In this document: positions 10,901 through 48,158 of the stretch, piece after piece
How positions within the stretch are numbered: the stretch's first letter is position 1
Layout of the letters: every line of letters starts with the position of its first letter
The notes under the pieces: generated by a model
Databases searched by the model: none
Seen by the model: the letters and a program-made list of their open reading frames with translations, nothing else
Told to the model about the DNA's origin: nothing
From: Mustelus asterias
Taxonomy: Eukaryota
Direction of reading: 5' to 3'
Assembly: GCF_964213995.1 (NCBI RefSeq)
Contig: NW_027590128.1
Coordinates: 1,488,001-1,552,000 of the forward strand
DNA length: 64,000 bases
Position numbers and translations under genes: made by a program

Positions 10901-11414
10901 ATGTGGAGATGCCGGCGTTGGACTGGGGTAAGCACAGTAAGAAGTCTCACAACACCAGGTTAAAGTCCAACAGGTTTATTTGGTAGCAAATACCATAAGC
11001 TTTCGGAGCACAGCTCCTTCGTCAGATGGAGTGGATATCTGTTCTCCAACAGTGCACAGAGACACAGAAATCAAGTTACAGAATAGTAATTAGAATGTAA
11101 ATCTCTACAGCCAGCCAGGTCTTCAAGGTACAGATAATGTGGGTGGAGGGAACATTAAACACAGGTTAAAGAGATGTGTATTGTCTCCAGACAGAACAGC
11201 TCGTAAGATTCTGCAAGATCAGGGGGAAAGCTGTGGGGGTTACTGATAATGTGACATAAATCCAACATCCCGGTTTAGGCCGTCCTCATGTGTGCGGAAC
11301 TTGGCTATCAGTTTCTGCTCAGCGACTCTGCGCTGTCATGTGTCGTGAAGGCCGCCTTGGAGAACGCTTACCTGAAGATCCAAGGCTGAATGCCCGTGAC
11401 TGCTGAAGTGCTCA
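10901..11414 (-). mobile_element. Penelope-like element 3' end plus pseudo-LTR
   Basis: Minus strand encodes EHFSSHGHS..LQVSVLQGG..RRVAEQKLIAKFRTHEDGLNRDVGFMSHY (C-terminus after the GIY-YIG domain), followed by the pLTR. Confidence 0.85.
10993..11029 (-). ncRNA. Minimal type I hammerhead ribozyme motif in Penelope pLTR
   Basis: CCAU-CUGACGA-A-GGAGC-ugu-GCUCC-GAAA-GC-UU-AUGG. Confidence 0.75.
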
Positions 11415-12892
11415 TGTAGGTTGTAGAAAGTTTTTTTCAAACTGGAGGCCTGTGACCAGTGGTATGTCTCAGGGAACACTGCTGGGTCCACTGTTATTTA
11501 TATATTATATGATTTAGATATATATATATTGTTGGATATTGGATATATGTTATATGACATGAATATATTAATGATTTGGATTGGATTGTAGGAGGCATGG
11601 TTAGTAAGTTTTCAGATGACACCAAGATTGGTGGCATAGTGGACAGTAAAGAAGGTTATCTCCAATTGCAACAGGATCTTGATCAGTTGGGCCAGTGGCC
11701 TGACGAATGGCAGATGGAGTTTAATTTAGCTAAATGCGAGGTGATGCATTTTGGTTGATCGAACTAGGGCAGGACTTAGTCAGTTAATGGTTGGGCGTTG
11801 GGGAGAGTTAAAGAACAAAGAGATCTAGGGGTACAGGTCCATAGCTCCTTGAAAGTGGAGTCACAGGTGGACAGAGTGGTGAAGAAGGCATTCGGCATGC
11901 TTGGTTTCATTGGTCAGAACATTGAATACAGGAGTTGGGACGCCTTGTTGAAGTTGTACAAGACATTGGTAAGGCCACATGTGGAATACTGTGTACAGTT
12001 CTGGTCACTCTATTATAGAAAGGATATTATTAAACTAGAAGGAGTGCAGAAAAGATTTACTAGGATGCTACAGGGACTTGATGGTTTGAGTTATAAGGCT
12101 GGATAGACTGGGACATTTTTCCCTGGAGCGTAAGAGGCTTAGGGATGACCTTCGAGAGGTCGATAAAATAATGAGGGGCACAGGTCAGCTAGATAGTCAA
12201 TATCTTTTCCCAAAGGTAGGGGGGCTTTAAAGTGAGAGGGGAGAGATACAAAAGGGTCCAGAGAGACATTTCTTTCAAACAGAGGGTGGTGAGTGTCTGG
12301 AAGAAGCTGCCAGAGGTAATAGTAGAGGCGGGTACAATTTTAAAAAGTATTTGGACAGTTACATGGGTAAGATGGGTGTAGAGGGATATGGGAAATTGGG
12401 ACTAGCTTAGGGGTTGAAATTGGGACTAGCTTAGGGGTTAAAAAAGGGGCGGCATGGACAAGTTGGGCCAAAGGGCCTGTTTCCATGCTGTAAACCTCTA
12501 TGACTAAATCAACTGTCTGCTGAAAGGGTTAACTTTTCTACAGAACCTAAAGGGGTGGGGAGTGAGCAGAAAACACTTGGCACACAGTTACGTCACTTTA
12601 CGTAATTTTAAAAAACTTCTCGAACAACAAAACAAAGTTGATTTTAAACTTCATCTATTAATTCTTTTGTTCTCTTCCTCAACCTAATTATTTTTATTTG
12701 ATCAGTTTTTGTTAGGGATTGGTAACTTCTGTTCTTTATAAACTGGTTCACTCATTTTGTTAATTCTACATGGGCTCGGAGAATCAGAACCCAGACTTTA
12801 TCATCCTTATCCTTTTTCTCCCTTTGCCACCACTCCCTCTGTTTTGCGGGAGGGTCGTGGGGATTCCAATCAGAACTAATCATTTTATCATA

Positions 12893-13068
12893 AAAGTGAA
12901 ATACTGCGGATGCTGGAATCTGAAACAAAAACAGAAAATGCTGGAAAATCTCAGCAGGTCTGACAGTATCTGTGGAGAGAGAATAGAGCCAATGTTTCGA
13001 GTCCAGATGTCCCTTCATAACAGCTCTTATGAAGTGTCATCCAGACTCGAAACGTTGGCTCTATTCTC
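12893..13068. mobile_element. Second Penelope pLTR family, inverted pair, decayed hammerhead cores
   Basis: AGAGAATAGAGCCAATGTTTCGAGTC...GACTCGAAACGTTGGCTCTATTCTCT palindrome. Relatives at 5850-5925, 18425-18500, 27487-27586, 31050-31096, 49225-49295, 49365-49460. Confidence 0.65.
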
Positions 13069-13609
13069 TAATCATTTTATCGATACGTTTCTTGTTCTTA
13101 GTTTGAGGTTTAAAGTGAGAGGGGAGAGATACAAAAGAGTCCAGAGGGGCAATTTTTCACTCAGGTGGTGGTGAGTGTCTGGAATGAGTTGCCAGAGGCA
13201 GTGGTAGAGGCGGGTACAATACTGTCTTTTAAAAAGCATTTAGACAGTTACATGGTAAGACGGGTATCGAGGGATTTGGGCCAAATATGGGCAATTGGGA
13301 CTAGCTTAGTGGTAAAAACTGAGCGGCATGGACAAGTTGGGCCGAAGGGCCTGTTTCCATGTTGTAAACCTCTATACCTCTATAACTTCCTAACATCCTG
13401 TCACTCTGTGATCCGTGTGAAATCTGAAACCAGGTATTCAACAAGACTCAAAGAGCATCAGCCCACTGGAGGCAAAGTTGTGAGACCGGCCAGTCCAGCA
13501 GAAAGAAACCCTCTGACCCTCCCCATTGACCAACTGTGAGAATGAACAAAATGCAGTCCTGGATGTAATTGAGAGCAGAAACAATAACAGCAGAATCCCA
13601 CCCCTGGAA

Positions 13610-14788
13610 TCACTCGTGAACTTGTTGGTGCCTCAGCAGGTGGGATGAAACTCTGAATCCCTTCCCACACTGAGAGCAGGTGAACGGCCTCTCCCCACTG
13701 TGAACTCGCTGGTGTGCCTTTAGGTTGGATAACCGACTGAATCTCTTCTCACACTGAGAGCAGGTGAATGGCCTCTCCCCAGTGTGAACTCGCTGGTGTG
13801 TCTGCTGGTGGGATAACTGAGTGAATCCCTTCCCACACACAGAGCAGATGAATGGCCTCTCCCCAGTGTGAGCTCGCTGGTGTGTCCGCAGGGCAGATGA
13901 CTGACTAAACCTCTTCCCACACTGAGTGCAGGTGAATGGTTTCTCCCCAGTGTGAACTCGCTGGTGTGTTCGCAAGCTGGATAAGTCAGTGAATCCCTTC
14001 TCACACACAGAGCAGATGAATGGCCTCTCTCCAGAGTGAACTCGCTGGTGCGTCTGCAGGCTGGACGAATGACTGAATCCCTTCCCACACTGAGAGCAGG
14101 TGAACGGTTTCTCCCCAGTGTGAACTCGCTGGTGTGTCCGCAGGCTGGACGAATGACTGAATCCCTCCCCACACTGAGAGCAGGTGAATGGCCTCTCCCC
14201 AGTGTGAACTCGCTGGTGTGTCTGCAGGTTGGATGAATTACTGAATCCGTTCCCACACTGAGAGCAGGTGAATGGCCTCTCCCCAGTGTGAACTCGTTGG
14301 TGTATCTGCAGTGCAGACAACTGACTGAATAGCTTCCCACACTGAGGGCAAGTGAATGGCCTCTCTCCAGTGTGAACTCGCTGGTGTGTCTGCAGGCTGG
14401 ATAACTGAGTGAACCCCTTCCCACACTGAGAGCAGGTGAACGGCCTCTCACCAGTGTGAATGCACTGGTGTATCCGCAGGTGGGATGACTGAGTGAATCC
14501 CTTCCCACACTGAGGGCAGATGAAGGGTCTCTCTCCAGTGTGAACTCGCTCATGTGCCCGCAGGCCGGATAACTGACTGAATCCCTCCCCACACTGAGGA
14601 CACATCAATGGTCTCTCCCCAGTGTGAACTCGCTGGTGTGTCTGCAGGTGGGATGACAGAGTGAATCCATTTCCACACTGAGAGCAGATGAACGGCCTCT
14701 CCCCAGTGTGGCTACGCCGATGAGCTTCCAGCAGAGAGGGGGCTCTGTATCCCTTCCCACAGTCCGCACATTTCCATGGTTTCTCCAT
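13610..14788 (-). CDS. C2H2 zinc-finger protein, 14 fingers, intact (class A, MEKPWKC start)
   Basis: Uninterrupted CxxC-x12-HxxxH array with TGERPF linkers; first ATG at 14788; acceptor near 15124. Confidence 0.9.
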
Positions 14789-15189
14789 GGTGCAGGTGTC
14801 CTTACCTCTCTCTTGGGTGGACAATCAGTTGAAGCCTCGTCGACACACAGAACACGGGTACAGTCTCTCCCTGCTGTGAATGGTGTGATATTTATTCAGG
14901 CTGTATTACTGGTTAAAGCTCAGTGCACTCACTCGCGTGTGGCAGTGTGTTGGTGCTTTTCCAGTCACACTGATGTTTGAACTCTATTCAAATTGACAGA
15001 CCGGACAATAATTTCTCCTTCTGGATTCAAAGTCTGATGATATTGAGGTCCCATGGAATATGACTCTGCCAGATCTGGACGTGACGTTTGAGATTTCAGC
15101 CTGTGATTCCTCTTTTGATAACCTGTAAAACGAGTTTACAAAATTCACCACTGTCAGTACAGGATAGAAATTCAGAACAATTCTAGTTT

Positions 15190-15800
15190 AGAACCATAGA
15201 ACCATAGAAAATTACAGCTCAGAAACAGGCCTTTTGGCCCTTCTTGTCTGTGCCGAACCATTTTTTGCCTAGTCCCACTGACCTGCACTTGGACCATATC
15301 CCTCCACACCCCTCTCATCCATGAACCCATCCAAGTTTTTCTTAAATGTTAAAAGTGACCCCGCATTTACCACTTTAGCCAGCAGCGCATTCCACACTCC
15401 CACCACTCTCTGCGTGAAGAAGCCCCCCCTAATATTCCCTTTAAACTTTTCTCCTTTCACCCTCAACCCATGCCCTCTGGTTTTTTTCTCCCCTCGCCTC
15501 AGCGGAAAAAGCCTGCTTGCATTCACTCTATCTATACCCATCAAAATCTTATACACCTTTATCAAATCTCCCCTCAATCTTCTATGCTCCAGGGAATAAA
15601 GTCCCAACCTATTCAATCTCTCATGTAACTCAGCTTCTCAAGTCCCGGCAACATCCTTGTGAACCTCCTCTGCACTCTTTCAACCTTATTTACATCCTTC
15701 CTGTAACTCGGTGACCAAGACTGTACACAATACTCTGAATTCGGCCTCACCAATGCCTTATATAACCTTACCATAATACTCCAACTTTTATACTCAACTT
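15190..15800 (-). mobile_element. CR1 LINE 3' fragment in ZNF intron
   Basis: RLGLYSLEHRRLRGDLIKVYKI...FFTQRVV..WN; (TATGGTTC)n tail. Confidence 0.9.
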
Positions 15801-15939
15801 TTCTACTTTCTCTGGAACATTCTTTCCCCTCTCATTCCTCAAAAGCTGTGAATCTCCATCCCACACACTCTCCCTCCATTCTCATTCAGAAACAGGGACC
15901 AGTTTCCAATCCTGGAAATTTGAGTCTGTCTGAAGCTCA

Positions 15940-16260
15940 ATCGTCATTCACACAAGGCCCGCGTTGTGATTGGCTGGAGGACCAGAGTCCTTCCGGTCCT
16001 CCAACTCTTCCCATTGGTCAACACCTTAGTATAATGGCCCGGGGGGGGTGGGAGTTCCACCGCACATGAGCAGCTTCCCTCACCCTTGGACATGCGCAGT
16101 CCCGGGCCGCCCTGGGAAGGGGAACATTCTGAGGTGTTGACCAATGGGAACTCTGGAGGACAGGAAGTACTCTGGTCCTCCAGCCAATCAGAGCTCCCTA
16201 TTGTCTGAATGCGGAAGTTGGACAATGAGCTTGTTCAGCTGCTCATTCCTGCCCGGCAAA
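15940..16260. promoter_or_regulatory. Putative bidirectional CCAAT promoter between divergent ZNF genes
   Basis: ATTGG near 15969 and 16012, CCAAT at 16141 and 16183, central CATGCGCA (NRF1-like), CGGAAGT (ETS); symmetric inverted arms. Confidence 0.65.
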
Positions 16261-16524
16261 GCTGCTGCTCTCTCTCTGAATGAAGAATGAGCTTCTGACA
16301 GACTCAACCTTCCCCGTCTCCAACATCTGTGAGTAAAACACTTTCTTTTCTTCCCCTTTCCATTCCTTTTCTCATTCTGGGGTGAATTGGGGACTTGCAG
16401 CAACTGAAGGGAAAGGAAGTGAATCCAGTCGGTATGTTCCACAGATTTTTAGTCCACTCAAATAGATATATATCTGTCTGGCTACCTGCATAGAGATTTT
16501 CAGCTCTCTGTGTCCAAGACAGGA

Positions 16525-16729
16525 CAGTAAGAACTCTCACAACACCAGGTTAAAGTCCAACAGGTTTATTTGGCTGCACTAGCTTTTGGAGCCCCAAGCC
16601 CCTTCTTCAGGTCTCACCTGCTTGGGGCTCCAAAAGCTCGTGCTGCCAAATAAACCTGTTGGACTTTAACCCGGTGTTGTGAGACTTCGTACTGTGCTTA
16701 CCCCAGTCCAATGCCGGCATCTCCACATC
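16525..16729. mobile_element. Fold-back Penelope pLTR pair (MITE-like hairpin) in ZNF 5' region
   Basis: Inverted arms of about 70 bp; flanked by duplicated GACAGGA; hammerhead core on the minus strand has GAAA>AAAA. Confidence 0.8.
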
Positions 16730-17314
16730 CAGGACAGGAAGCAGTGAGCATGGATCTGTCAATCAGCACCGACAGGAGAATTGGGAGGGTGAATATTAGA
16801 CACAGCAGAGTGAGAATGGAGGGAGACTGTGTGGGATGGAGATTTACAGCTCTTGGGGAATGAGAGAGGAAAGAATGTTCCATAGAAACTAGAATTGTCT
16901 GTTCTGAATTTCTATCCTGTACTGACTGTGATAACCTTTGTAAACTCCTTTTACAGGATATCAGAAGGTGAGGATTTTACAGACAGAAATCTCAAACCAA
17001 ACATCACATCAACATCTGACAGAGTCACTCAATTCATCGGGACCTGAATGCGATCGGCCTTTGAATCCAGAAGGAGAAATGCTTCTCTGTTCTGTCAGCT
17101 TTAGCAGTCTTTAAACATCAGTGTGACTGGAACAGGACTGACACACACACACACAAAATCAACTGAGATTTTCCCGGGCATTGACTGTGGAAAGGGCCTC
17201 CCAGTTACACAGCCTGAAAAAATATTGCATCATCACAGCAGAGCACTATAATCTTGTTCTGTGTGAGACTTCAACTGATGGTCAAACCTGGAGCAACACA
17301 AGGATACCTGCACC

Positions 17315-18157
17315 ATGGAGAAACCGTGGAAATGTGGGGACTGTGGGAAGGGTTGCAAAACCCCCTCTGAGCTGCAAACTCATCGACGTATTCACACTGG
17401 AGAGAAGCCGTACACCTGTTCTGTGTGTGGGAAGAGATTCACTCGATTATATCATCTGCAGTGACATCGACTGGTTCACACTGGAGAAAGAGCGTTCATC
17501 TGCTTTGAGTGTGGGAACGGATTCGCTCATTTACCCGATCTGCAGAGACACCAGTGCGTTCACACTGGAGAGAGACCATTCACCTGCTTGGTGTGTGGGA
17601 AAGGATTTATGCAGTTATCCAATCTGTCAAAACACAAAGTCACTCACAGCAATGAGAGACCCTTTAAATGCTCTGATTGTGGAAGTGGTTTCAAAAGCTC
17701 TCGGGAACTGATGATCCACCAGCGGATTCACACTGGGGAGAGACCGTTCAGCTGCTCTCACTGCACAAAGACATTTAGAACATTATCTCACCTGCGGGAG
17801 CACCAGCGAATTCACACCAGGGAGAGACCGTTCACCTGCTCTGTGTGTGGGAAGGGATTCACTCATTCATCCAGCCTGCTGAGTCACAATCTCACTCATA
17901 CCCAGGAGAGACCCTTTAAATGCTCTGACTGTGGAAATGGTTTCAAAAGTTCTCGGGATCTGATGTCCCACCAGCGCATTCACACTGAGGAGAGACCGTT
18001 CAGCTGTTCTCTCTGCACAAAGAAATTTAGAACGTCATCCAACCTGCAGGAGCACCAGCGAGTTCACACTGGGGAGAGATCATTCACCTGCTGTGTGTGT
18101 GGGAAGGGATTCACTCAGTCATCCAGCCTGCGGAGACACCAGCGAGTTCACAAGTGA
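17315..18157 (+). pseudogene. C2H2 ZNF, 10 fingers, in-frame TGA in finger 2 (class A)
   Basis: ATG GAG AAA CCG TGG at 17315; TGA at 17462-17464; the frame continues to HK* at 18157. Confidence 0.85.
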
Positions 18158-22200: not shown

Positions 22201-22279
22201 CTCCTTCCTAAAATGTGGTCACTCAATTGATGCGATTAACAGCCACAGAGCATCGAATCACTGCAACTGCCTTGGTGTC

Positions 22280-23332: not shown

Positions 23333-23819
23333 GGTGCTGGTGTCCTTGTTGTTTCTCCTGGTTTGATGATCAGTTGAAGCCTCGTCCACACACAGAACAC
23401 GTGTACAGCTTCTCTCCACTGTGAACGGTATGATGTTTTTTCATGCTATGCAACTCAGTGCTTTTCCAGTCACACTGACGATTGACATATTTTCCACAGA
23501 CAAACATTTATACTTCCACATTCAAAGGTTGAAGAATAATCGAGTGACTCAAGCCAAGATGTTTGTTTTGAGTTTTGAATCTGCAAATCTTTCCCTTGTA
23601 ATACCTGTAAAGAGAGTTTACAAAATTAATCAGTCAGTCCGGGATAGAAATTCTGAACAGACAATTCTAGTTTCTAAGGAATATTCTTTCCACCCTCAAT
23701 CCTCAAAATCTGCTAATCTCCACACCACACAGTCTCCCTCTATCCCCACTCTGCTGTACGTAATTCTACACCTTGGAAATTCTGCTGATGGACAGATCTC
23801 TGTTAACTGCTTCCTGTCT

Positions 23820-24160
23820 CAACCGGGATATTGGGTTCATGTCACACTATTTGTAACTCCCACAGTTGCGTGGACCTGCAGAGTTTCACTGGCTGTCTTG
23901 TCTGGAGACAATACACATAGTTTTAGCCTGTCTTGATGCTCTCTCCACTCACATTGTTTTGTTTCTTAAAGACTTGATTAGTTGTAAGTATTCGCATTCC
24001 AACCATTATTCATGTAAATTGAGTCTGTGTCTTTATAAGCTCTGTTTGTGAACAGAATTCCCACTCACCTGAAGAAGGGGCTTAGAGCTCCGAAAGCTTG
24101 TGTGGCTTTTGCTACCAAATAAACCTGTTGGACTTTAACCTGGTGTTGTTAAACTTCTTA
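23820..24160 (+). mobile_element. Penelope pLTR with ORF tail, in ZNF 5' region
   Basis: Begins NRDIGFMSHYL*; ends AATAAACCTGTTGGACTTTAACCTGGTGTTGTTAAACTTCTTA; TSD TCCTGTCT; near-identical to 47835-48158. Confidence 0.85.
24066..24102 (+). ncRNA. Minimal type I hammerhead ribozyme motif
   Basis: CAC-CUGAAGA-A-GGGGC-uuaga-GCUCC-GAAA-GC-UU-GUG. Confidence 0.7.
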
Positions 24161-24254
24161 TCCTGTCTTGGACTCAGAGATCGTAAGAAATAGGAACAGA
24201 AGCAGGCCATTCACCCCATCAAGCCTGCTCTGTCACTCAGTATGATTAAGGTGA

Positions 24255-24860
24255 AAGGTGCCCCCCTTGTCTTTCCTTTTCATGACACCTGTGCCCGCAT
24301 TCAAAGGATTATCATGTCATTTTTGCAAACTCTAATATGCTGCCACCATGAAACACATCCGCTCACCACCCCAGTCAGCATTCTGCAGGGACCGCCCTCG
24401 CCATGATACCCTGGTCCACTCCTCCATCACCCTCAACCCCTCATCCCACATTACCTGTCCACGCATGTGCAGTAGGTGCAATACCTTCCCCATTACATCC
24501 TCCCTGTCCAACGCTCCTAACACTCCTTTCAGGTGAAGCAGCGTTTCACTTGGACCTCCTTCAATTTAGCGTACTGCATTCCAATGCCGTCCCCTCTATG
24601 TTGGGGAGACTAAACGCAGACTGGGTGACTGCTTTGCAGAACACCTTTGCTCAGTCCACAAGCATGACCTTCACTATCCAGTCACTTGCCATTTCAACTC
24701 AGCATCTTGCTCTCATGCCCACACCGCTGTCCTTGGCCTGTTGCAATGCCCCAGTGTTGCCCAACGCAATCTGGAGGAACAACATCCCATCTTCAGATTG
24801 GGCACATTACAGCCTTCTGAACTCAACATTAAGTTCAGCAACTTTAGACTGTGAATATTC
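24255..24860 (+). mobile_element. Decayed Penelope ORF (GIY-YIG region), second family
   Basis: FQVKQRFT..LYVGETKRRLGDCFAEHL with frameshifts. Confidence 0.75.
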
Positions 24861-24939
24861 CCCTACATGAATAAACGCAACTCAGGCCCACGCCCTGTGA
24901 AATAATAAATAAAGAACAAATTCCTGCAATGGGAGATAA

Positions 24940-25573: not shown

Positions 25574-27458
25574 CAAACAGATGGAGCCCTGTGGGTGCGG
25601 AGCAAACAGATGGAGCCCTGTGGGTGCGGAGCAAACAGATGGAGCCCTGTGGGTGTGGAGCAAACAGATGGAGCCCTGTGGGTGCGGAGCAAACAGATGG
25701 AGCCCTGTGGGTGCGGAGCAAACAGATGGAGCCCTGTGGGTGCGGAGCAAACAGATGGAGCCCTGTGGGTGCGGAGCAAACAGATGGAGCCCTGTGGGTG
25801 CGGAGCAAACAGATGGAGCCCTGTGGGTGCGGAGCAAACAGATGGAGCCCTGTGGGTGCGGAGCAAACAGATGGAGCCCTGTGGGTGCGGAGCAAACAGA
25901 TGGAGCCCTGTGGGTGCGGAGCAAACAGATGGAGCCCTGTGGGTGCGGAGCAAACAGATGGAGCCCTGTGGGTGCGGAGCAAACAGATGGAGCCCTGTGG
26001 GTGTGGAGCAAACAGATGGAGCCCTGTGGGTGCGGAGCAAACAGATGGAGCCCTGTGGGTGTGGAGCAAACAGATGGAGCCCTGTGGGTGCGGAGCAAAC
26101 AGATGGAGCCCTGTGGGTGCGGAGCAAACAGATGGAGCCCTGTGGGTGCGGAGCAAACAGATGGAGCCCTGTGGGTGCGGAGCAAACAGATGGAGCCCTG
26201 TGGGTGCGGAGCAAACAGATGGAGCCCTGTGGGTGCGGAGCAAACAGATGGAGCCCTGTGGGTGCGGAGCAAACAGATGGAGCCCTGTGGGTGCGGAGCA
26301 AACAGATGGAGCCCTGTGGGTGCGGAGCAAACAGATGGAGCCCTGTGGGTGTGGAGCAAACAGATGGAGCCCTGTGGGTGCGGAGCAAACAGATGGAGCC
26401 CTGTGTGTGTGGAGCAAACAGATGGAGCCCTGTGGGTGTGGAGCAAACAGATGGAGCCCTGTGGGTGTGGAGCAAACAGATGGAGCCCTGTGGGTGCGGA
26501 GCAAACAGATGGAGCCCTGTGGGTGTGGAGCAAACAGATGGAGCCCTGTGGGTGCGGAGCAAACAGATGGAGCCCTGTGGGTGCGGAGCAAACAGATGGA
26601 GCCCTGTGGGTGCGGAGCAAACAGATGGAGCCCTGTGGGTGCGGAGCAAACAGATGGAGCCCTGTGGGTGCGGAGCAAACAGATGGAGCCCTGTGGGTGC
26701 GGAGCAAACAGATGGAGCCCTGTGGGTGCGGAGCAAACAGATGGAGCCCTGTGGGTGCGGAGCAAACAGATGGAGCCCTGTGGGTGCGGAGCAAACAGAT
26801 GGAGCCCTGTGGGTGTGGAGCAAACAGATGGAGCCCTGTGGGTGCGGAGCAAACAGATGGAGCCCTGTGTGTGTGGAGCAAACAGATGGAGCCCTGTGGG
26901 TGTGGAGCAAACAGATGGAGCCCTGTGGGTGTGGAGCAAACAGATGGAGCCCTGTGGGTGCGGAGCAAACAGATGGAGCCCTGTGGGTGCGGAGCAAACA
27001 GATGGAGCCCTGTGGGTGCGGAGCAAACAGATGGAGCCCTGTGGGTGTGGAGCAAACAGATGGAGCCCTGTGGGTGCGGAGCAAACAGATGGAGCCCTGT
27101 GGGTGCAGAGCAAACAGATGGAGCCCTGTGGGTGCGGAGCAAACAGATGGAGCCCTGTGGGTGCGGAGCAAACAGATGGAGCCCTGTGGGTGCGGAGCAA
27201 ACAGATGGAGCCCTGTGGGTGCGGAGCAAACAGATGGAGCCCTGTGGGTGCGGAGCAAACAGATGGAGCCCTGTGGGTGCGGAGCAAACAGATGGAGCCC
27301 TGTGGGTGCGGAGCAAACAGATGGAGCCCTGTGGGTGCAGAGCAAACAGATGGAGCCCTGTGGGTGCGGAGCAAACAGATGGAGCCCTGTGGGTGCGGAG
27401 CAAACAGATGGAGCCCTGTGGGTGTGGAGCAAACAGATGGAGCCCTGTGGGTGCGGAG
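25574..27458. repeat. 29-bp minisatellite, 65 copies (CAAACAGATGGAGCCCTGTGGGTGCGGAG)
   Basis: 1885 bp = 65 x 29; near-perfect units. Confidence 0.98.
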
Positions 27459-27761
27459 CAAACACATCAACATTTGTCACTGAGATAAAAACAGTAAATG
27501 CTGGAAAATCTCAGCAGGGCTGACAGCATCTGTGGAGAGAGAATAGAGCCAACGTTTCGAGTCTGGGTGACCCTTTGTCAGAGCTAAGAACAAAAAATGT
27601 TAAAGAAGTAAAAAGAGTTTTGTTACTAAAATGTGGGAAGATGAGGGAAAAATTCACAAACAATTCAAGGATTTAAAATAACAACAGCAGACAGGGAATC
27701 TCATCATTAGAACAAGGACTGATTTCAATAATTTAACTGCAAGAGGGTTAAGAAGAGTTAA

Positions 27762-31107: not shown

Positions 31108-31585
31108 CGATGTGGAGGTTCCGGCGTTGGACTGGGGTGAACACAGTAAGAGTTTTAACAACGCCAGGTTAAAGTCCAACAGGTTTATTTGGTAGCAAAT
31201 ACCATTAGCTTTCGGAGCGTGCTGCTCCTTCGTCAGATGGAGTGGAAATGTGCTCTCAAACAGGGCACAGAGACACAAAATCAAGTTACAGAATACTGAT
31301 TAGAATGCGAATCCCTACAGCCAACCAGATCTTAAAGATACAGACAATGTGGGTGGAGGGAGCATTAAGCACAGGTTAAAGAGATGTGTATTGTCTCCAG
31401 ACAGGACAGCCTGCAAGTCCAGGGGGCAAGCTGTGGGGGTTACTGATAATGTGACATAAATCCAACATCCCGGTTTAGGCCGTCCTCATGTGTGCGGAAC
31501 TTGGCTATCAGTTTCTGCTCAGCGGCTCTGCGCTGTCGTCTGTCGTGAAGGCCGCCTTGGAGAATGCTTACCTGAAGATCAGAAG
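31108..31585 (-). mobile_element. Penelope 3' end plus pLTR with hammerhead motif at 31202-31240
   Basis: Homologous to 10901-11414; CCAU-CUGACGA-A-GGAGC-agcac-GCUCC-GAAA-GC-UA-AUGG. Confidence 0.85.
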
Positions 31586-31907
31586 CCGAATGGAAGAGAG
31601 GGAAGCAGCAGAGACAGCTGATCAGATTGTCTCAATCTTGGTGACAGAGAAGCTCCATGAGCTCCTCACACTTGTTGTTGGAGGTGAGGATGGAGGAGAC
31701 GGGAGAGGGGGAAGCCCTTCAAATGAAACTAACATGTTTGAGGCATTAAAAGCATTCATCACACTTTGTTGAACATAAAGCTTGTGTATTTGAGTTCCAC
31801 CCAAAATATAAACCTTCCAACTGGGCTAAGATTTGTCAGCAGCAACAGACACCAATGAAAATAGTTAGGACCTTGATGTGATTAAGAGCAAAATTCAGTC
31901 CTTGCAG

Positions 31908-32945
31908 TCACTCGTGAACACGCTGGTGTTTCAGCAGGTGAGGTGACTGAGTGAATCCCTTCCCACACACGGAGCAGGTGAATGGCCTGTCCCCAGTGTG
32001 AATTCGCTGGTGCTTTCCCAGGTTGGATGATTGACTGAATCTCTTACCACAATCAGAGCAGGTGAATGGTCTCTCCCCGGTGTGAATTCGCTGGTGTCTC
32101 TGCAGGGTGGATGAATCAATAAATCCCTTCTCACAACTGGAGCAAGTGAATGGCCTCTCCCCAGTGTGAACTCGCTGGTGTTTCAACAAGATGAATGACT
32201 GACTGAAGCCCTTCCCACACTCAGAGCAGGTGAACGGCCTCTCTCCGGTGTGACCTCGCTGGTGTTTTAGGAGGTTGAATGATTGAGTGAATCTCTTCCC
32301 ACACTCGGAGCAGATAAATGGCCTCTCCCCGTTATGAATTCTCTGGTGTTTCAGCAGGTCGGATGAATCAGTGAATCCCTTCCCACAATCAGAGCAGGTG
32401 AACGGCCTCTCTCCAGTGTGAACTCGCTGGTGTTTCAGCAGGATAGAAGAGGTAGGGAATCCCTTCCCACAGTCAGAGCATCTGAATGGTCTCTCTCTAG
32501 TGTGAACTCTCTGGTGTGTCAGCAGGATTGATGAGGTAGCGAATCCCTTCCCACACTCATGACAGTTGAATGGCCTCTCCCCAGTGTGAACCCACCGGTG
32601 TTTCAGCAGATGGCATGAACAAATGAATCCCATCCCACACTTGGAGCAGGTGAATGGTCTCTCCCCAGTGTGAACTCGCCGGTGTGTCAGCAAGATGGAT
32701 GAGGTAGTGAATCCCTTCCCACACTCAGAGCAGGTGAATGGTCTCTCTCCAGTGTGATTGTGTCGATGAGTTTTCAGTTCAGATGGAAATCTGAATCTCT
32801 TCCCACAGTCTCCACAGTTCCATTGTTTCTCCCTGTTGTGACAGCATTTATGTTTCAACAGGCCAGATGACCGGCTGAATGTTCGTCCACACACAAAACA
32901 CGTGTACGGTTTCTCTCCACTGTTAACCGTGCTTTCCCCTTCCAT
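31908..32945 (-). CDS. C2H2 ZNF, 12 fingers, intact (class [13 protein letters not shown] start)
   Basis: Uninterrupted array ending HQRVHE*; ATG at 32945. Confidence 0.9.
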
Positions 32946-33589
32946 GTTCAAAACCCAATGATATTCAGATTACACTAATTTAGGCGATAGCGTCGGATCC
33001 TGATGCGATGTTTCGTTTGAGTTTTCTCCCTTCCACTCCTGCGCTTCTAATATCCTGTAAGAAAAAGTCCAAAGTTAAAAATTGAAGCAAACTTGGTTTG
33101 AGTTTACTGTGTGTAAATCCTCCCCTTCTCACCCTCTGGAAAAGGAGACTCCAAAATCTATCACTGTCAGTCCAGGATAGAAATTCACAACATTTTCTCA
33201 CAGGGACAGTGATAACCGTGCCTGTGTCCTGCTCCCGAGAAAGATGACAGCCATTAACCCAAGTCTATCAGTGTTTCTCCTTCACTATTTCATGTGATGT
33301 GGTTTTATTGCCAAGACCAGCATTTATTTCCTGCCCCTGAGGAGGGCAGTTAGAGACTGAATCGCATGTTGACAAGTCTATGGAGAGACAGCAGATTCCC
33401 ATGAATAAACAGGGTGGGTTTTTAAATTGTTCACAGCTGTAATGGTTACTCAAGTGAAATTATATTCCAGATTTTCCAGCATTTTATGAATTCTAATTAA
33501 ATCCCCCCCCAGCTCCATGATGGGATTTGAATCCGTCCCCAGAACATTAGGCTGTGTCACTGATATTACCACCACCTCCCCAATTGTAG

Positions 33590-38935: not shown

Positions 38936-39496
38936 GGTGCTGGTATCCTTGTGTCTCTCCAGGTTGCACAATCAGTTGAAGACTCGCCCACACTCAGAAC
39001 ACGTGGACAGTTTTTCCTTGCTGTGAATGGTGTGATGTTTTTTCAGGCTGCGTAACTGGATAAAGCTCTTTCCACAGTCAATTCACTGGAACACTCTCAC
39101 TTGGGTTGTGTGTGTATCTTGGTGCGTTTCCAGTCACACTGATGTTTGAAATCTTCTCCAGGCAGAACAAACAACCTCATTTCTCCTTCCACATTCAAAG
39201 TCTGAGGATATTCAGACCCTGATAAATTGAGACTCTGTCTGATTTTGATGTGATGTTTCCACGCCTCACCTGTAAAAGGAATTTACAAAATTAATCACTG
39301 CCAGTCCAGGATAGAAATTTTGAACAGACAATTCTAATTCTCTGGAATATTTCTTCCTCTCTCATTCCCCCAAATCTGTAAATCCCCATCCCACACACTC
39401 TCCATCCTCCCAAGGCTGAAATCCAAACCATCTCCGCCATTTCTTTCCTGCACTCCCAGTTTTCTCCCTCCCTCTCCTGTGTCTGGGTTCAGTTCA

Positions 39497-40111
39497 TGAT
39501 GTGGAGATGCCGGCGTTGGACTGGGGTAAGCATAGTAAGAAGTCTCACAACACCAGGTTAAAGTCCAACAGGTTTATTTGGTAGCACAAGCCACTAACTT
39601 TCAGAGCGCTGCCCCTTCATCAGATGAGTGGGAGTTCTGTTCACAAGCAGGGCATAAAAATGCACATCACCAACTATCCCCGGGACAAGTCGGATACACT
39701 TGTCACGTACAATAGTTTCTTTGAATTAACGGGTTTGAAGGCCCAGAAGTGTGTTTGGCAGTTATCGGCCAGTCGTCTTCCAGCATGTACCAAATCTGCC
39801 AGTGTTGTGGCTGCCTGATACCCTGCGGGGCCACCGGTCAGGCACGACTCACTATGGTTTAGAATGCCAAGATAACCACAGCTAAGGAAGTTCTGCCACG
39901 TCACGAAGCCGGTTAGACGGATTGGCCAGGATAAATTGCCACTTGGTATCAAGGTAAATATGTGGATAGGGCCTGGATGGGATTGTTGTCTTCATGTGCC
40001 CTGTGAACAGAATTCCCACTCACCTGATGAAGGAGCAGCGCTCCGAAAGCTAGTGGCTTGTGCTACCAAATAAACCTGTTGGACTTTAACCTGCTGTTGT
40101 GAGACTTCTCA
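39497..40111. mobile_element. Inverted Penelope pLTR pair enclosing a ~340-bp spacer
   Basis: Inverted arms of about 110 bp; TSD CTGGGTTCAGTTC; hammerhead motifs at 39592-39626 (-) and 40021-40055 (+). Confidence 0.85.
40021..40055 (+). ncRNA. Minimal type I hammerhead ribozyme motif
   Basis: CAC-CUGAUGA-A-GGAGC-agc-GCUCC-GAAA-GC-UA-GUG. Confidence 0.75.
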
Positions 40112-40529
40112 CTGGGTTCAGTTCTCCAGCTGCTGTCTGCAGACTGACAATAAAACCATTGGGTCTTATTGGGGGTGTTGGGGCCTCCAGCGGGTGTTTG
40201 TGAATCCTCCCCGCCCACCTCCCAGGGTTTCCTTCCTTCCCAGAGATCAGAGTCCTCATTGATTTGAGGCCAAAGTGTAACCTCTTATTTATTGTCCCCC
40301 TCCCCCATCCTCTGATGTGAACCATCCTCCAGTGGCTGAGCCAGGATGGGGCCGTTAACCTGGGCCTGTTCCCGGGAGGGAGGGAGGGAGGGAGAAGCCC
40401 CGCAGCTGCAAACCAGGGAGCTGACAATGATTCTGAAGGGTTTGCGGATCCACAAAGTGTTTCCAAATCCTCCCAGCCACCGCCTAACGCTGACTCCGCT
40501 TCTCCGGGACAAACAAGCGCCAAGGACAG

Positions 40530-40848: not shown

Positions 40849-40924
40849 GCGGAAAGGAAGGGATCTGAAAAGCAGCAGATACCAGGTTATTCTGGGAGAA
40901 ATAGGACCTCTGCAATGTCAAGTG

Positions 40925-41006
40925 TTAGAGCTCCGAAAGCTTGTGTGGCTTTTGCTACCAAATAAACCTGTTGGACTTTAACCTGGTGTTGTTAAACTTC
41001 TTACTA
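40925..41006 (+). mobile_element. 5'-truncated Penelope pLTR
   Basis: Starts in the hammerhead stem II loop; TSD ATGTCAAGT. Confidence 0.75.
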
Positions 41007-42214
41007 TGTCAAGTTTTACACAGCACACGGGCAGCCTGTGGTTTCACCCTGGATGGAGAATCTCCGAATTGCATCATTCAAATCACTCCATGGAATTCTC
41101 AGGAACCACATTGTTTGTTTGGAGAGGAAGGCTTGTCGTACAGTTAATGAAAAGCAGCACACAGCTAAACACAGAGGCCCACACACTCTCTCCCGCAGTC
41201 ACACACAAACGGACATCTTCTCAATGCACAGAAACCCACGTATATCAACAGGTACATGCACACAGGATATATGCAGATATACTCCATGATACACACATAC
41301 ACACATGGATACACTTACTCACACACAAATATACACACGGGACACTTACTGTCCTTTGAGGCGGACAATGCTCACCCATCTGTCTAATATTCGGGATAAA
41401 GCCACAAAGTTCAAGAAATTTCGGGAAAAATGACCCTCCAAGGACAACGAGCAGTCTTGACCATCCAATATTCTACCTTCTTCGCTGAAACAGAATCTTA
41501 CATTCCGCACAGAAACAACAACAAACACTAACATTGAACATTCCATTCCCACCCTATGTTATCAGGCCCAGTTGGAGATAGTAGACAATGCAGAATATCT
41601 CAGGATAATTGCAGCCACTAATTTTCCTTTTGTAATTGCAGAAATGCTCATCCTCTCATATTGATCATCTAGTTGTTGAAGGAAATATTGATCGTCTCGT
41701 TATTGAAGGAAATTCTAAGACAGGTTACAAGGAGAAACAAAATCTAATGTTATTGTAACTCTGCAGTCCAATATTCCCTTGGCCCTAATCCTTGCTGCTC
41801 TAATCTGATGGGATTAGATGTATTGCACAATACCTAGCAGGTGCCATTGACATTGTACATCTTCGCTATCAATAATACTCCTAACTTAGTATCATCCACA
41901 AACTTACTAACCATGCATTGTACATTCACATCCAAATTTGTTTTGATTTGATTGGATTTATTGTCAAATATATACACTGAAAAGTATTGTTTCTTGCGCG
42001 CTATACAGACAAAGCATAACATTCATGCAGAAGGAAAGGAGATAGTGCAGAATGTAGTGTTACAGTCATAGCTAGGGTGTAGAGAAAGATCAATTTAGTG
42101 CGAGGTAAGTCCATTCAAAAATCTGATGGCAGCAGAGAAGAAGCTGTTCTTGAGTCGGTTGGTACGTGACTTCAAGATTTTATATCTTTTTCCCGACAGA
42201 AGAAGGTGGAAGGT

Positions 42215-44055
42215 GGACACTGACCTACACAAGAAAGCCAGATACGATCGAAGGAGATCCATCAAAGATGCCAAAAGACAATACCAGACCAAGTTAGAGT
42301 CCCAGGCTAGCCACACCGACCCCAATTATGGCAAGGTCTGCAAGACATAACAGTCTACAAGATGAAGGCATGTAAAATTGCCGGCTCCAACGCACCCCTC
42401 CCTGATGAGATCAATGCATTCTACATCCGTTTTGAGAAAGTGGTCAGCGAGAGCATGCCCTCCACCCTGGAAGCCCTGGATGAACCTGTATCTGGGGGTC
42501 ACCACTTCAGATGTCAGAGCAGCTTTCTTGAAGGTCAACCCACGGAAAGCAACTGACCCAGGTGGGGTACTCGGAAATGCACTCAGATCCTGCATGGATT
42601 AGCTGGCAGAGGTATTCACAGACATCTTCAACTTCTCTTTACAAGAATCTGAGGTCCCTATCTGCTTCAAGAAGATGACCATAATCCCGGTACTTAAGAA
42701 AAATCAAGCAGCGTGCTTTAATAACTATCGGCCGGTGGCTCTGACATTCATCATTATGAAGTGCTTCGAAAGGTTAGTCATGGCACAAATCAATTCCAGC
42801 CTCCCAGACTACCTGGATCCACTACAGTTTGCCTACTGCCACAACAGGTCCACAGCAGATGCCATTTCCCTGGCCCTGCACTCAATCCCGGGACACCTAG
42901 ATAACAAGGACACCTATGTCAGACTCCTATTTATTGACTACAGCTCAGCCTTCAACACTATTATTCCCAAGAAACTCCTCTCCAAACTCCGTGGCCTGGG
43001 CCTCGGCACCTCCTTCTCCGACTGGATCCTGAACTTCCTAACTCATAGACCACAATCAGTAAGGATAGGCAACAACACCTCCTCCACGATCATCCTCAAC
43101 AAAGGCCCCACGAGGCTGTGTTCTCAGCCCCCTACTATACTCCTGATACACCTATGACTGTGCGGAAAAATTCCCCTCCAATTCAATTTTCAAGTTTGAT
43201 GATGACACCACCGTAGTGGGTCGGATCTCAAACAATGACAAGACAGAGTACAGGAATGAGATAGAGAATCTGGTGAACTGCTGCGGCAACAAAAATCTCT
43301 CCCTCAATTTCAACAAAACAAAGGAGATTGTCATCAACTTCAGGAAGTGTAAATGAAAACATGCTCCTTTCTACATCAATGGGGATGAAGTAAAAAGGGT
43401 CGAGAACTTCAAGTTTTTAGGAGTCCAGATCACCAACAATCTGTCCTGGTCCCCCCATGCCGACACTATAGTTAAGAAAGCCCACCAGCGCCTCTACTTT
43501 CTCAGAAGACTAAGGAAATTTGGCATGTCAGCTACGACTCTCACCAACTTTAACAGATGCACCATAGAAAGCATTCTTTCTGCTGTATCACAGCTTGGCA
43601 TGGCTCCTGCTCTGCCCAACACCGCAAGGAACTACAAAAGTTCGTGAATGTAGCCCAATCCATCACGCAAACCAGCCTCCCATCCATTGACTCTGTCTGC
43701 ACTTCCCGCTGCCTCGGCAAAGCAGCCAGCATAATTAAGGACCCCACACATCCTGGACCTTCTCTCTTCCACCTTCTTCCTTTGGGAAAAAGATACAAAA
43801 GTCTGAGGTCACGTACCAACCGACTCAAGAACAGCTTCTTCCCTGCTGCTGTCAGGCTTTTGAATGGACTTACCTTGCATTAAGTTGATCTTTCTCTACA
43901 CCCTAGCTATGACTGTAACACTACATTCTGCACTCTCTCCTTTCCTTCTCTATGAACGGTATGCTTTGTCTGTATAGCGCGCAAGAAACAACACTTTTCA
44001 CTGTATGTTAATACATGTGACAATAATAAATCAAATCAAATCAAAATCAAATCAA
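42215..44055 (+). mobile_element. Rex1/Babar-type LINE inserted in an opposite-strand copy of the same family (41942-42213 and 44056-44200)
   Basis: [44 protein letters not shown]; (AAATC)n tail. Confidence 0.9.
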
Positions 44056-45554
44056 AGAGGGTATGCCCGTGGTGTGTGGGGTCCTTAATTATGCCGGCTG
44101 CTTTGCTGAGGTAGCGGGAAGTGTAGGCAGAGTTAATGGGCGGGAGGCTGGTTTGCGTGATGGATTGGGCTTAATTCACGACCTTTTGTAGCTTCTTGCT
44201 GTATTGGGTGAATAACAAGGCTCCCAACACCGACCCCTGAGGCACGCCACTAGTCATAGGCCTCCAAAGATATGAAATACATTCAGGGCCAGAAAGGAGA
44301 AGTTTGTTTTTCAGAGTGGAGGGAAGTTTTCAGCAGTGTGACCCCCAGGGCTCAGTGTTGGCACCATTGCTCTCATTGATACATATTCATACCTGGGACT
44401 TGGAACACAGGACAGAACTTCAATTTTTTCACAGGATTCAAAACTCAGATATACGGGAAATAGTGAGGAGGATAATAAAACTTCAGGAGAACATAGAGAG
44501 ATTGGAAGAAATGGAAAAATAGATGGAAAGGTTAATAACAAACTTCAGGAGGACAGAGACTGGGGAAAATGGAGATATAGGAAACAGTGAGGAGAACAGT
44601 AACAAACTTCAGGAGGTCAGAGAGACTGGCAAACCTGGCAGACACATAGCAGATAAACCGTATATATCATACTGCTTGGAACATCTTACATCCTTAACAA
44701 CTCTGGGAACAGTGTCTGCATGATCAGGATGGTGCTACATAAAGCCAATGGGAAATTGATTTAGAAATAGTCTAGGGAAGAAAGCAATACGGGAAACAGC
44801 AGTGAGAGAAACAGCAGTGAGAAAGGACACATGAACACAAGACTGAGGTTGGATGACTGCTGGAGTGATAAAAAAAACTGGGTGACATGAAATATCGATC
44901 ATTAATAGTACTGGAATAAATGTGTCTTGGAGACAATTAGCTAAAAAAAAATGATTAAAATACATGTGTGATGTAATAAACATGGAATATACAAACAAAG
45001 TGCATTTATTGTGTTTTCCTAGCTGAGGGTGCCAAAGGGTCTGCAGTTTCACAATCAACACTGTTACGGAATGTTTTACACCATTTTTCAGTGCCATTGA
45101 TTTATGTCGGTAAAATCTGGGCATTTCTGTGTTGATTATATGGGAATAACAGCAATGTTTTGGGATTAAATTGGAGACACAACTATCAAAATGTCAGCAA
45201 TCAGCTATTTTAAGATAGGGACAGTTAACACTCCTTTGAAACGTTTTGATTATTGTTCAGGTGCTGTAAAAATGCAAGTAATTTCCTGTGGAAAAAGACT
45301 GAATTCCCTGTCTGAGCTCAGAACAGATGATACAGTCACACAGCAGATTGACCACTCAGCAGCTGAATGTGGGAAGAGATGCACTCGATCATCCCATTTA
45401 CTGACAGAACAGCTGTTGGAGAGAGACCACTCACATATTTCACGTGAGTGAGCTCGTTTTGTTATTTTCCCAACTGTTCACACATTAAGGATTCAAAGGC
45501 TTTCATGCATGGTCAGCATATTCTTACGGGAGAGACGCTGTTTAAATGTTTCAA

Positions 45555-45855
45555 GTTTAAAGTTTGTTTATTAGTGTCACAAGTAGGCTAACATCAACAC
45601 TGCAATGAAGTTACTGTGAAAATCCTCTAGTCGCCACACTCCAGCGCCTGTTCAGGTGCACTGAGGGAGAATTTAGAATGGCCAATGCACCTAATCAGCA
45701 CGTCTTATGGACTGTGGGAAGAAACCAGAGCACCCGGAGGAAACCCACGCAGACACAGGGAGAACATGCAAACTCCACACAGACAGCGACCCAAGTTGGC
45801 AATTGAACCTGGGCCCCTGGTGCTGTCAGGCAGCAGTGCTAACCACTGTGCCATG
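45555..45855 (-). mobile_element. V-SINE, tail type A, inserted in a heavily decayed ZNF remnant (about 45280-45910)
   Basis: V core on the minus strand; flanks show GAATGTGGGAAGAGA..CTCGATCATCCCAT and GAGATTCACT..GAGTTCA. Confidence 0.8.
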
Positions 45856-46144
45856 TATAGGTAGAGATTCACTTGTTAATCACACCTGCCGAAATATTAG
45901 TGAGTTCATTTGTGACTATCATGGATGTTTACAATTATTTCCACCGTTTTGGTGATTCTCAATTTCTGACAGTTCCAAGCCCCCTTCTTTGAACTTGGAT
46001 AATAGACCTTGCATTTTAATTTCTATGTTCCCTAATTTTATTAATGGTCCATCAGCGCCGTTTTTCACCCAATAATCACAGAGAAATCACTCCAACTCGA
46101 TTTTCAAGTTTGCTAATGAACCTCAGTAAAGCCAAAGAAAAGCC

Positions 46145-47460
46145 AGGCAGCGTGCCTTAATGACTATCATCCAGTGGTTCTGATATCCATCATTATGAAA
46201 TGCTTTGAAAGGTTAGTCATGGCACGAATCAATTCCAGCCTCCCGGACTACCTGGATCCACTACAGTTTGCCTCGCACCGCAACAGGTCCACAGCAGACG
46301 CCATCTCCCTGGCCCTGCACTCAACCCTGGAACATCGAGATGACAAACACACCGATGTCAGACTCCTATTTATTGACAGCTCAGCCTTCAACACCATTAT
46401 TCCTACAAAACTCATCTCCAAACTCCGTGGCCTGGGCCTCGGCTCCTCCCTCTGCGATTGGATCCTGAATTTCCAAACCCATAGACAACAATTAGTAACG
46501 ATAGGCAACAACACCTCCTCCAAGATCATCCACAACACTGGTGCCCCACAAGGCTGTGTTCTCAGCCCCCTATTACACTTCTGATACATCTGTGACTGTG
46601 TGGCCAAATTTCCCTCCAACTCGATTTTCAAGTTTGCTGACGACACCACCGGATGGTGGGTTGGATCTCAAACAATGATGAGACAGAATACCGGAAAGAG
46701 ATAGAGAATCTGGTGAACTGGTGCGGCAACAATAATCTCTCCCTCAATGTCAACAAAATGAAGAAGATTGTCATTGACTTCAGAAAGTGTAGAGGAGAAC
46801 ATGCCCCTGTCTACAGCAACAGGGACGAAGTAGCAAGGGTTGAGATCTTCAAGTTTTTAGGTGTCCGGATCACCAACCTGTCCTGGTCCAACACTATAGT
46901 GAAGAAAGCCCACCAACTCCTCTACTTTCTCAGAAGACTAAGGAAATTTGGCATGTCAGCTACGACTCTCATCAACTTTTACAGATGCACCATGGAAGTC
47001 ATTCTTTCTGGTTGCATTACAACTTGGCATGGCTCCTGCTCTGCCCAAGAGAACAAGAAACTACCAAAAATCGTGAATTAAGCTCAATCCATCACGCAAA
47101 CCAGTCTCCCATCCATTGACTCTGTCTACACTTCTGGCAAAGCAGCCAGCATAATTAATAGCCCCACGCACCCCGGACATTCTCTTCTCTTCCACCTTCT
47201 TCTGTCAGGAAAAAGATACAAAAGTCTGCAGTCACATACCAACCGACTCAAGAACAGCTTCTTCCCTGCTGCCATCAGACTTTTGAATAGACCTACCTTG
47301 TCTTAAGTTGATCCTTCTCTGCATCCTAGCTATGACTGTAACACTACATTCTGCATCCTCTCCTTTCTTTCTCTATGTATGGTATGCTTTGTCTATATAG
47401 CGCAAGAAATAATACTTTTCACTGGATACTGATACATGTGGGAATAATCAATCAAATCAA
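46145..47460 (+). mobile_element. Rex1/Babar-type LINE, 5'-truncated
   Basis: [40 protein letters not shown]. Confidence 0.9.
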
Positions 47461-47469
47461 AAAACTATT

Positions 47470-47800
47470 TGTTCTGTTCAATGGCGGGGTGTTTACCCAG
47501 CATCGCTAGCGGCGGTGAATGTCTCCTATCCACACGAGAGCACTGCGCAGGCGCAGTACTGCCCCTTGTCTGGAGCATGCGCATTGGGAGTGCTCGGGAA
47601 AGGAAGTTGCTTCTTTCTTGTCTCTGCAACGGGTAAGGTAGCGGCGTGTCCGAGCGATCGTAGGGCGCAGGGGGGTGATCGGAAAAGCTTTATAAATACC
47701 AAGTGAAACCATTAAACCCCGAATAAGAAGCTCGAGGCCAGCCCCGCGGTTGTCCGGAATCACACTGCTTCCAGCCGTTACAGACCCTGGTTAAACAGCT
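47470..47800 (+). promoter_or_regulatory. Promoter module Q (copy 2) and probable first exon of ZNF 49922
   Basis: ATGGCGG, TTACCCAGCAT, TGCGCAGGCGCAGTAC, GCATGCGCA, GGAAGT; donor-like GG|gtaagg near 47633. Confidence 0.65.
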
Positions 47801-47834
47801 GCCATCTTGAGAGGGCATCCTAGAATCAGAATTT

Positions 47835-48158
47835 ATGTCACACTATTTGTAACTCCCACAGTTGCGTGGACCTGCAGAGTTTCACTGGCTGTCTTGTCTG
47901 GAGACAATACACATCTTTTTAGCCTGTCTTGATGCTCTCTCCACTCCCATTGTTTTGTTTCTTAAAGACTGGATTAGTTGTAAGTATTCGCATTCCAACC
48001 ATTATTCATGTAAATTGAGTCTGTGTCTTTATAAGTTCTGTTTGTGAACAGAATTCCCACTCACCTGAAGAAGGGGCTTAGAGCCTCGAAAGCTTGTGTG
48101 GCTTTTGCTACCAAATAAACCTGTTGGACTTTAACCTGGTGTTGTTAAACTTCTTACT
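47835..48158 (+). mobile_element. Penelope pLTR with hammerhead motif at 48062-48098
   Basis: Near-identical to 23839-24160; TSD ATCTTGAGAGGG; CAC-CUGAAGA-A-GGGGC-uuaga-GCCUC-GAAA-GC-UU-GUG. Confidence 0.85.

Follow-up and report, generated by a model that had tools for sequence, protein, structure and literature searches.

What are the small hammerhead-like motifs scattered through 64,000 nucleotides (nt) of the genome of the shark Mustelus asterias (assembly GCF_964213995.1, contig NW_027590128.1, positions 1,488,001 to 1,552,000; hereafter the window), and do they, or did they ever, cut RNA? An earlier note on this DNA read them as minimal hammerhead ribozymes dispersed with the pseudo-long terminal repeats (pLTRs) of Penelope-like elements (PLEs). 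Our analysis makes it likely that these motifs represent minimal type I hammerheads, carried in the terminal repeats of a young and very abundant Neptune-type PLE, that in the working element the ribozyme forms the first 40 nt of the element's RNA and cuts as a dimer, and that the copies in the window are inert. For this best explanation we observed the anatomy, the copy number, the covariation and two peaks in the 5' ends of genomic copies, and from these we infer the remainder. Neither the motif nor the element that carries it is new in kind; the point added here is where the genomic copies begin.

Our descriptor for a core demanded a stem I of at least 3 base pairs (bp), CUGANGA, a stem II of at least 4 bp, GAAA, a palindromic helix III and UH. 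Exactly five intact type I minimal cores were found in the window, all with the palindrome AGCU and all with the outer limits that the earlier note had assigned to them (Table 1). Across 200 block-wise dinucleotide shuffles, 0.01 matches of any kind would be expected, and none carried a palindrome of 4 nt or more. An Rfam scan of the window gave no hammerhead match to any core at E up to 5. The three degraded copies proposed alongside the intact ones are real, each with a defined core defect, and the paired variation described for stem II (GGAGC/GCUCC, GGGGC/GCUCC and GGGGC/GCCUC) and stem I (CCAU/AUGG versus CAC/GUG) is present in the window copies.

Pairing is also maintained among copies chosen genome-wide. 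In a set of 16 copies taken across subfamilies and both pLTR families (five from the window; all selected for an intact core, and the rows related), two-sided change occurred in 7 of 11 pairs and 96.6% of cells were paired, so that stems I and II and the helix III palindrome covary; slid controls paired at only 27-42%. Because the rows are related and preselected, shuffle counts for covariation are not probabilities. The helix III palindrome swaps from AGCU in family 1 to ACGU in family 2, and the catalytic core, the adenine at 9a and helix III palindromy are unchanged in 16 of 16 copies; the upstream DNA of the subfamilies is 79% alike. A sequence-only tally of 255 cores (201 of family 1 and 54 of family 2, many of the loci selected with the motif) gave the extra A at 9a in 201/201 and 50/54, the G10.1-C11.1 pair in 187/201 and 49/54, and a palindromic 15.2-16.2 as GC in 194/201 and as CG in 47/54, respectively.

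This architecture matches the published minimal hammerhead (min-HHR) of PLEs (Cervera and De la Pena 2014, PMC4209133) as described there: a type I core with a nucleotide extra between 9 and 10.1, a G10.1-C11.1 pair, a palindromic 15.2-16.2 and a short helix I, found mostly as solitary motifs or opposite-strand pairs 100-700 bp apart, with full elements carrying tandem pairs ~3 kb apart. Helix II has 5-6 bp here, compared with 7-8 in the Schistosoma families of that description. Judged by sequence, the motif is the metazoan PLE min-HHR on every feature tested, a kind already known, and the identity given in the earlier note holds.

The cores lie, as had been proposed for family 1, in the pLTR 3' ends of 5'-truncated copies of a PLE, and in two window copies the end of a GIY-YIG frame is still present upstream (Table 1). 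A search of the shark's own genome with the element's protein returned at least 150 matches, many in frames of ~900 codons. Subfamily C cores were present at 20 of 20 loci around long frames. At 14 of these a same-strand core stood on both sides of the frame, with a spacing of 3,008-3,097 nt (mostly 3,021), and one locus was a tandem array with a period of ~2,991 nt. The full element elsewhere in the genome reads hammerhead-pLTR, an open reading frame (ORF) of 892 amino acids (aa), hammerhead-pLTR; from the stop it is 216 nt to C3, and from there another 130 nt to the next ATG, which is 100 nt behind the predicted cut. The 892-aa protein matches Pfam RVT_1 at E=1e-9, above the cut-off. Its GIY-YIG match is weak (E ~1e-3, below the cut-off, in two fragments, with no listed match for the full protein), and the motif itself is visible in the sequence. 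A C-x4-C-x2-C linker precedes the endonuclease, which has two Cys between the GIY and YIG halves and two His after them (CCHH). By the definitions given in PMC8557442 the carrier is, from these predicted features, a Neptune-type EN+ PLE, the placement being made by the linker motif alone, which Nematis shares.

Family-1 elements possess direct pLTRs, an inverted 5' arm, a one-sided tail and a target-site duplication. Neptune EN+ PLEs are described in similar terms (PMC8557442, PMC3846280), with one ORF encoding reverse transcriptase (RT) plus a C-terminal GIY-YIG domain, a CX2-5CxxC linker, pLTRs bearing TATA plus initiator, an inverted 5'-truncated arm, a one-sided 30-40-bp tail and target-site duplications of 8-14 bp. 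Behind every family-1 core comes a small hairpin; in subfamily C an AATAAA stands 19 nt past the predicted cut. The 3' ends are of two types, ~63 or ~97-100 nt behind the cut. Two tail-defining 3' ends and a hammerhead near the ORF start are likewise described for the Anolis Poseidon element PAc (Frangieh et al. 2024, PMC11167929), where, unlike here, the ATG lies inside the ribozyme. The pLTR-ORF junction is covered by contigs of three runs from other organisms that we guess to be RNA; these contigs are uninformative on ends and strand. At 24594-24806 (+) the window also holds a degenerate GIY-YIG fragment from a different Penelope-like family; it shares 30% identity with the family-1 protein, and no hammerhead stands behind it.

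A tight single motif had 79,389 matches in the 3.68-Gb genome and its control had none, compared with ~4,000 reported for coelacanth and ~9,000 for Xenopus, counted with a different descriptor in older assemblies (PMC4209133). Sixty evenly spaced 10-kb stretches of large contigs (600 kb) held 32 descriptor-intact cores and 61 pLTR anchors, which extrapolates to ~200,000 cores genome-wide; five cores in 64 kb are therefore about the average density. Nearest-neighbour identity was 99.8% in subfamily C (n=6), 98% in B (n=11), 95% in A (n=8) and 94% in D and others (n=9), making C the youngest. In 35 random cores (stretches L161-L220), subfamily C had U at position N17, B had either U or A, A had chiefly A and D chiefly C. 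From the oldest to the youngest subfamily N17 thus runs from C through A to U in these cores, and the cut site may have weakened with time.

Junctions were counted genome-wide with patterns that required intact downstream sequence and two mismatches just upstream. Among the 49,966 copies of the downstream stretch in subfamily C, 1,594 (3.2% raw) begin exactly at the predicted cut (+1). Control positions gave 244 starts at -40, 618 at -26, 161 at -4, 422 at -2 and 672 at +7, and the foot of stem II (-8) gave 84, the pattern used there admitting 6/16 of random flanks where the others admit 9/16. The patterns for -40, -37, -26 and +7 also take in part of subfamily A. Three controls are inflated: by eye, about two-thirds of the +7 matches listed and some of those at -2 are partner arms of +1 fold-backs, and the -26 hot spot that junction mapping in 600 kb had suggested shrank, since about half of its 618, among the matches listed, are 3-nt slippage deletions. 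All 30 of the inspected subfamily C loci starting at +1 are without an upstream core, and the majority fold back tightly, on 0-1 nt of microhomology. In subfamily B (36,773 copies), where the letters at the cut differ from those in C, 685 copies start at 0/-1 versus 226 at -3/-4; 27 of 30 inspected cut-site loci have no core, and the 30 include two duplicates and two pairs that are arms of one insertion. Unbiased junction mapping in the 600 kb, too small a sample, placed 1 of 60 copies at the cut, plus its partner arm at +1.

Subfamily C has a second peak, of 1,030 starts, at -37. This start is the A of an initiator-like CCACTCA, 29 nt past the first T of TATAAG, a box that B does not have, and a start at this distance follows the usual TATA-to-start spacing. 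A G precedes ~72 of 100 of the -37 starts among the matches listed (by eye), where one third would be expected, and does so at 14 of 20 loci and at 6 of 7 loci without an inverted arm. Cut-site starts are preceded by G at 2 of 30 loci in B and at 13 of 30 in C, where only A, C and G were allowed (one third expected) and many are templated by the fold-back. The -37 starts therefore look as expected for a capped start, with a G excess that the cut-site starts do not share; extra 5' G in L1 and SVA copies has been ascribed to copying of the cap (PMC3287187).

Starts are in sharp excess at the scissile bond, distinct from the G-marked start site 37 nt before it, and this excess is evidence for a cut made on RNA that was later copied into the germline. 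The excess is likely a fossil record of ribozyme cutting in living cells, and the positions of the two peaks suggest an RNA that has the ribozyme at its front and undergoes cutting in vivo. We lean, by a small degree, towards a fuller reading in which the genome records both 5' ends of the RNA, the capped start 6 nt before the core and the uncapped end at the cut, with the ribozyme acting as a dimer-gated switch for decapping or unit length that is active in the germline. A literature search, subscription papers and supplements aside, turned up neither a footprint of this sort nor PLE hammerheads from sharks; the available text of PMC4209133 names no cartilaginous fish and describes no 5'-end footprint, and the supplements of that paper and of bioRxiv 10.64898/2026.07.22.740005 may list shark motifs.

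The motifs could be PLE hammerheads and the +1 peak could still have another source, be it a further transcription start, cleavage by a host nuclease or a stop of RT, that happens to fall there; we consider this unlikely. Initiators favour a purine after a pyrimidine, and +1 is such a purine in C and in part of B; the G at -1 in 13 of 30 C loci would also suit a second start. However, a better start with TATA spacing and a strong G excess already exists at -37, and G is found at just 2 of the 30 B loci. A hairpin that starts at or near +1 might stop RT, but the expected place to stall, the foot of stem II, has just 84 starts. Furthermore, whereas the excess in B is modest, the peak tracks the UH site in B as well as in C, although the letters differ between them.

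Several observations weigh against cutting as the source of the peak, or against a strong ribozyme. The B excess is only threefold, and among the B matches listed about one-fifth to one-quarter fold back on an AT palindrome of 2 nt, an outcome that could be favoured by microhomology alone. Among the 4-6 C cut-site loci without a clear inverted arm, three have G at -1 and may thus be capped starts. The counts include both arms of single insertions as well as segmental duplicates, so that events are not independent, and they sample eight positions in C, short of a complete profile. Of 27 unselected family-2 copies, none begins at the predicted cut. The fold is also predicted to be weak: stem I has just 3-4 bp and is rivalled by the downstream hairpin, in the five monomers with intact cores its opening pair has a probability of 0.02-0.64, and folding places the active dimer at -18 to -23 kcal/mol versus -36 to -41 for rival dimer folds. 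U17, as in the youngest subfamily, is the weakest NUH ending. Lastly, mutating the Anolis ribozyme left insertion in vitro unchanged, and no RNA-seq reads ended at its cut (PMC11167929), whereas genomic copies peak at the cut here. The weak predicted fold is consistent with the low in vitro activity described for PLE hammerheads (PMC4209133) and with the protein-assisted cleavage described for PAc (PMC11167929). A monomer with a true helix III (AGC-UAGUG-GCU), possible in the 40024 and 39623 copies, was rejected as a trait of the family since it hinges on one variable base that only part of subfamily A has.

In the proposed mechanism, transcription would start at the A 6 nt before C3, 29 nt after the TATA-like box, and yield a capped RNA; from that start the hammerhead would make up the first 40 nt. 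Its partner could be the hammerhead of the other pLTR, 5' and 3' copies lying 3,021 nt apart, that of a neighbouring tandem unit, or that of a second RNA held by the element's protein. The AGCU palindromes of the two hammerheads would form a common helix III, and the cut would fall after CU(U/A/C), that is, after N17. It would either strip a capped 37-nt leader or release a unit-length RNA, whose ends could be joined, as PMC4209133 proposes. Reverse transcription would initiate internally at two tail sites, ~63 or 100 nt behind the cut, as it is described to do at two tail sites in PAc (PMC11167929), and on reaching the capped or cut 5' end would often snap back, leaving stubs and fold-backs.

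The function of PLE hammerheads has been called unclear (PMC8557442). Less probably, in our view, the fold may be kept for protein binding or packaging, or as a passenger, with cleavage taking no part in spreading and the cut RNAs being by-products that give dead stubs; this is compatible with both cleavage and the footprint. It would fit the few per cent of copies that start at the cut, as well as the descriptions of Naiad elements that spread without hammerheads (PMC8557442) and of Anolis core mutants that insert normally in vitro (PMC11167929). The invariance of the core, the 9a adenine and helix III palindromy in all 16 copies, across subfamilies and in an unrelated family, speaks against this reading, though with preselected rows it indicates retention between subfamilies, not a rate. 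If the ribozyme is a germline-active switch, the thousands of insertions would serve as an in vivo assay from which the activity of this class of ribozymes can be read. The footprint gives exact RNA ends for rapid amplification of cDNA ends, and a young family with intact frames and roughly 100,000-200,000 cores makes the role of the hammerhead easy to address.

For the window itself, the closest pairs of same-strand intact cores are 8, 16 and 20 kb apart and, since no same-strand partner for a dimer is near, the copies are most likely inert relics. Target-site duplications of 8-14 bp at 5 of 9 units tested (a doubtful 7-bp match at one, none at three) indicate that they are separate insertions. 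Animal non-LTR retrozymes also carry type I hammerheads related to those of pLTRs, with one chondrichthyan reported (bioRxiv 10.64898/2026.07.22.740005), but these are described as short tandem repeats, in contrast to the dispersed, truncated PLE ends with target-site duplications found here. Identity as a tandem retrozyme was rejected: no tandem array runs over the window cores, and a same-strand partner occurs within 4 kb of 4 of 35 random cores (an opposite-strand partner, 16 of 35). It is very unlikely that zinc-finger genes of the host have adopted some window copies as RNA-processing signals, for example the 31236 copy as a poly(A) site with the cut just before it. That copy is sense to a zinc-finger frame, 316 nt behind its stop, with the first AATAAA, and several others lie in or near zinc-finger promoters and introns; however, the density of cores in the window is close to that genome-wide (32 in 600 kb), the copies are typical subfamily members with target-site duplications, and a dimer partner is not nearby.

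Table 1. Hammerhead motifs and PLE copies in the window (positions are those of the window; C3 and N17 follow hammerhead numbering).
Feature	Positions	Strand	Details
Intact minimal hammerhead, subfamily B	10993..11029	-	C3 11025; predicted cut 10997/10996; N17=U
5'-truncated PLE copy	10901..11413	-	GIY-YIG frame end 11413-11246, pLTR, hammerhead, AATAAA 10980, long 3' end with tail
Family-2 fold-back stub	12899..13069	.	both cores broken; 14-bp duplicated flank
Fold-back stub, two pLTR arms	16505..16729	.	hammerhead 16577-16613 (-), G12 to A; second arm truncated inside hammerhead
Intact minimal hammerhead, youngest subfamily C	24066..24102	+	C3 24069; predicted cut 24099/24100; N17=U
5'-truncated PLE copy	23818..24160	+	short 3' end; 8-bp target-site duplication; TATA-like box 24034-24039; inferred start 24063
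Family-2 hammerhead, ACGU palindrome, broken core	27547..27586	-	reads CUGACAA, G8 to A
Intact minimal hammerhead, subfamily B	31202..31240	-	C3 31236; N17=A
5'-truncated PLE copy	31108..31592	-	GIY-YIG frame end 31592-31446; sense to zinc-finger frame 31908-32969
Single insertion, two head-to-head pLTR arms	39494..40118	.	13-bp duplicated flank; tail on left arm only
Degraded hammerhead	39592..39626	-	C11.1 to U; palindrome AGUU (broken); inverted partner arm of 40021+
Intact minimal hammerhead, subfamily A	40021..40056	+	C3 40024; N17=A
Stub beginning in loop II, without CUGANGA	40925..41006	+	9-bp target-site duplication
Intact minimal hammerhead, subfamily C	48062..48098	+	stem II GGGGC/GCCUC; C3 48065; N17=U
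5'-truncated PLE copy	47832..48158	+	12-bp target-site duplication; 3' pLTR of intact element L145 100% identical over 327 nt

The earlier note had also given a second pLTR family its own version of the hammerhead. Copies of the motif are indeed present in family 2, but neither of the two window examples is intact: the copy at 13020-13060 has CUUAUGA in its core (G5 to U), its mirror arm is likewise broken, and so is the other copy (Table 1). Elsewhere in the genome, intact family-2 cores gave 1,819 exact matches and their control none. The ends of family 2 are PLE-like, with two 3' ends ~35 nt apart and fold-backs. A tblastn search of 30 family-2 loci with the family-1 protein matched only nested family-1 pieces; a separate set of 30 short-copy loci was not searched for frames. 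The 5' ends cluster at the front of stem I, with 6 of 27 unselected copies starting at -34 to -36, and a TATAAA stands ~30 nt before this cluster (L219:760-800, L222, L227, L242). A branch-point/polypyrimidine/AG stretch just before stem I recalls the intron end at helix I described for Drosophila Penelope (PMC4209133); reading the family-2 start as a splice acceptor was set aside because the stubs include the AG.

Among the insertions themselves, ~335 nt of unrelated DNA (39667-40001) separate the inverted pLTR arms of the unit at 39494..40118, and this inverted-arm unit recurs at duplicated zinc-finger loci (L002-L004). Another inverted-pair insertion is found with the same flanks in ~20 small contigs (L064-L085), apparently within a large repeated unit. 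C2H2 zinc-finger frames are clustered in the window, which also contains frames of LINE type and a constant exon resembling those of immunoglobulins. Behind the stop of the zinc-finger frame 31908-32969 (-), the first AATAAA (31189) comes from the PLE copy that lies 316 nt away; an intact hammerhead precedes this signal by 17 nt, and the copy may be an adopted poly(A) site. Two copies, 24069 and 40024, sit in antisense orientation in the DNA separating zinc-finger promoters from coding exons. The splice-donor consensus is CAG/GTGAGT, and the 5' part of the hammerhead, read antisense on the - strand at 24063-24071, 40018-40026 and 48059-48067, matches it perfectly. We take 427-1071 (-) to be an immunoglobulin-like constant-domain exon, and 56393-59350 (-) is presumably an uninterrupted LINE-type endonuclease/RT frame of 985 codons. 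A 29-bp minisatellite lies just behind zinc-finger promoters at 25574-27464 (65 copies) and 54415-55003 (20 copies), and 23 copies of a 24-bp repeat (51030-51583) run in frame within a 776-aa zinc-finger frame.

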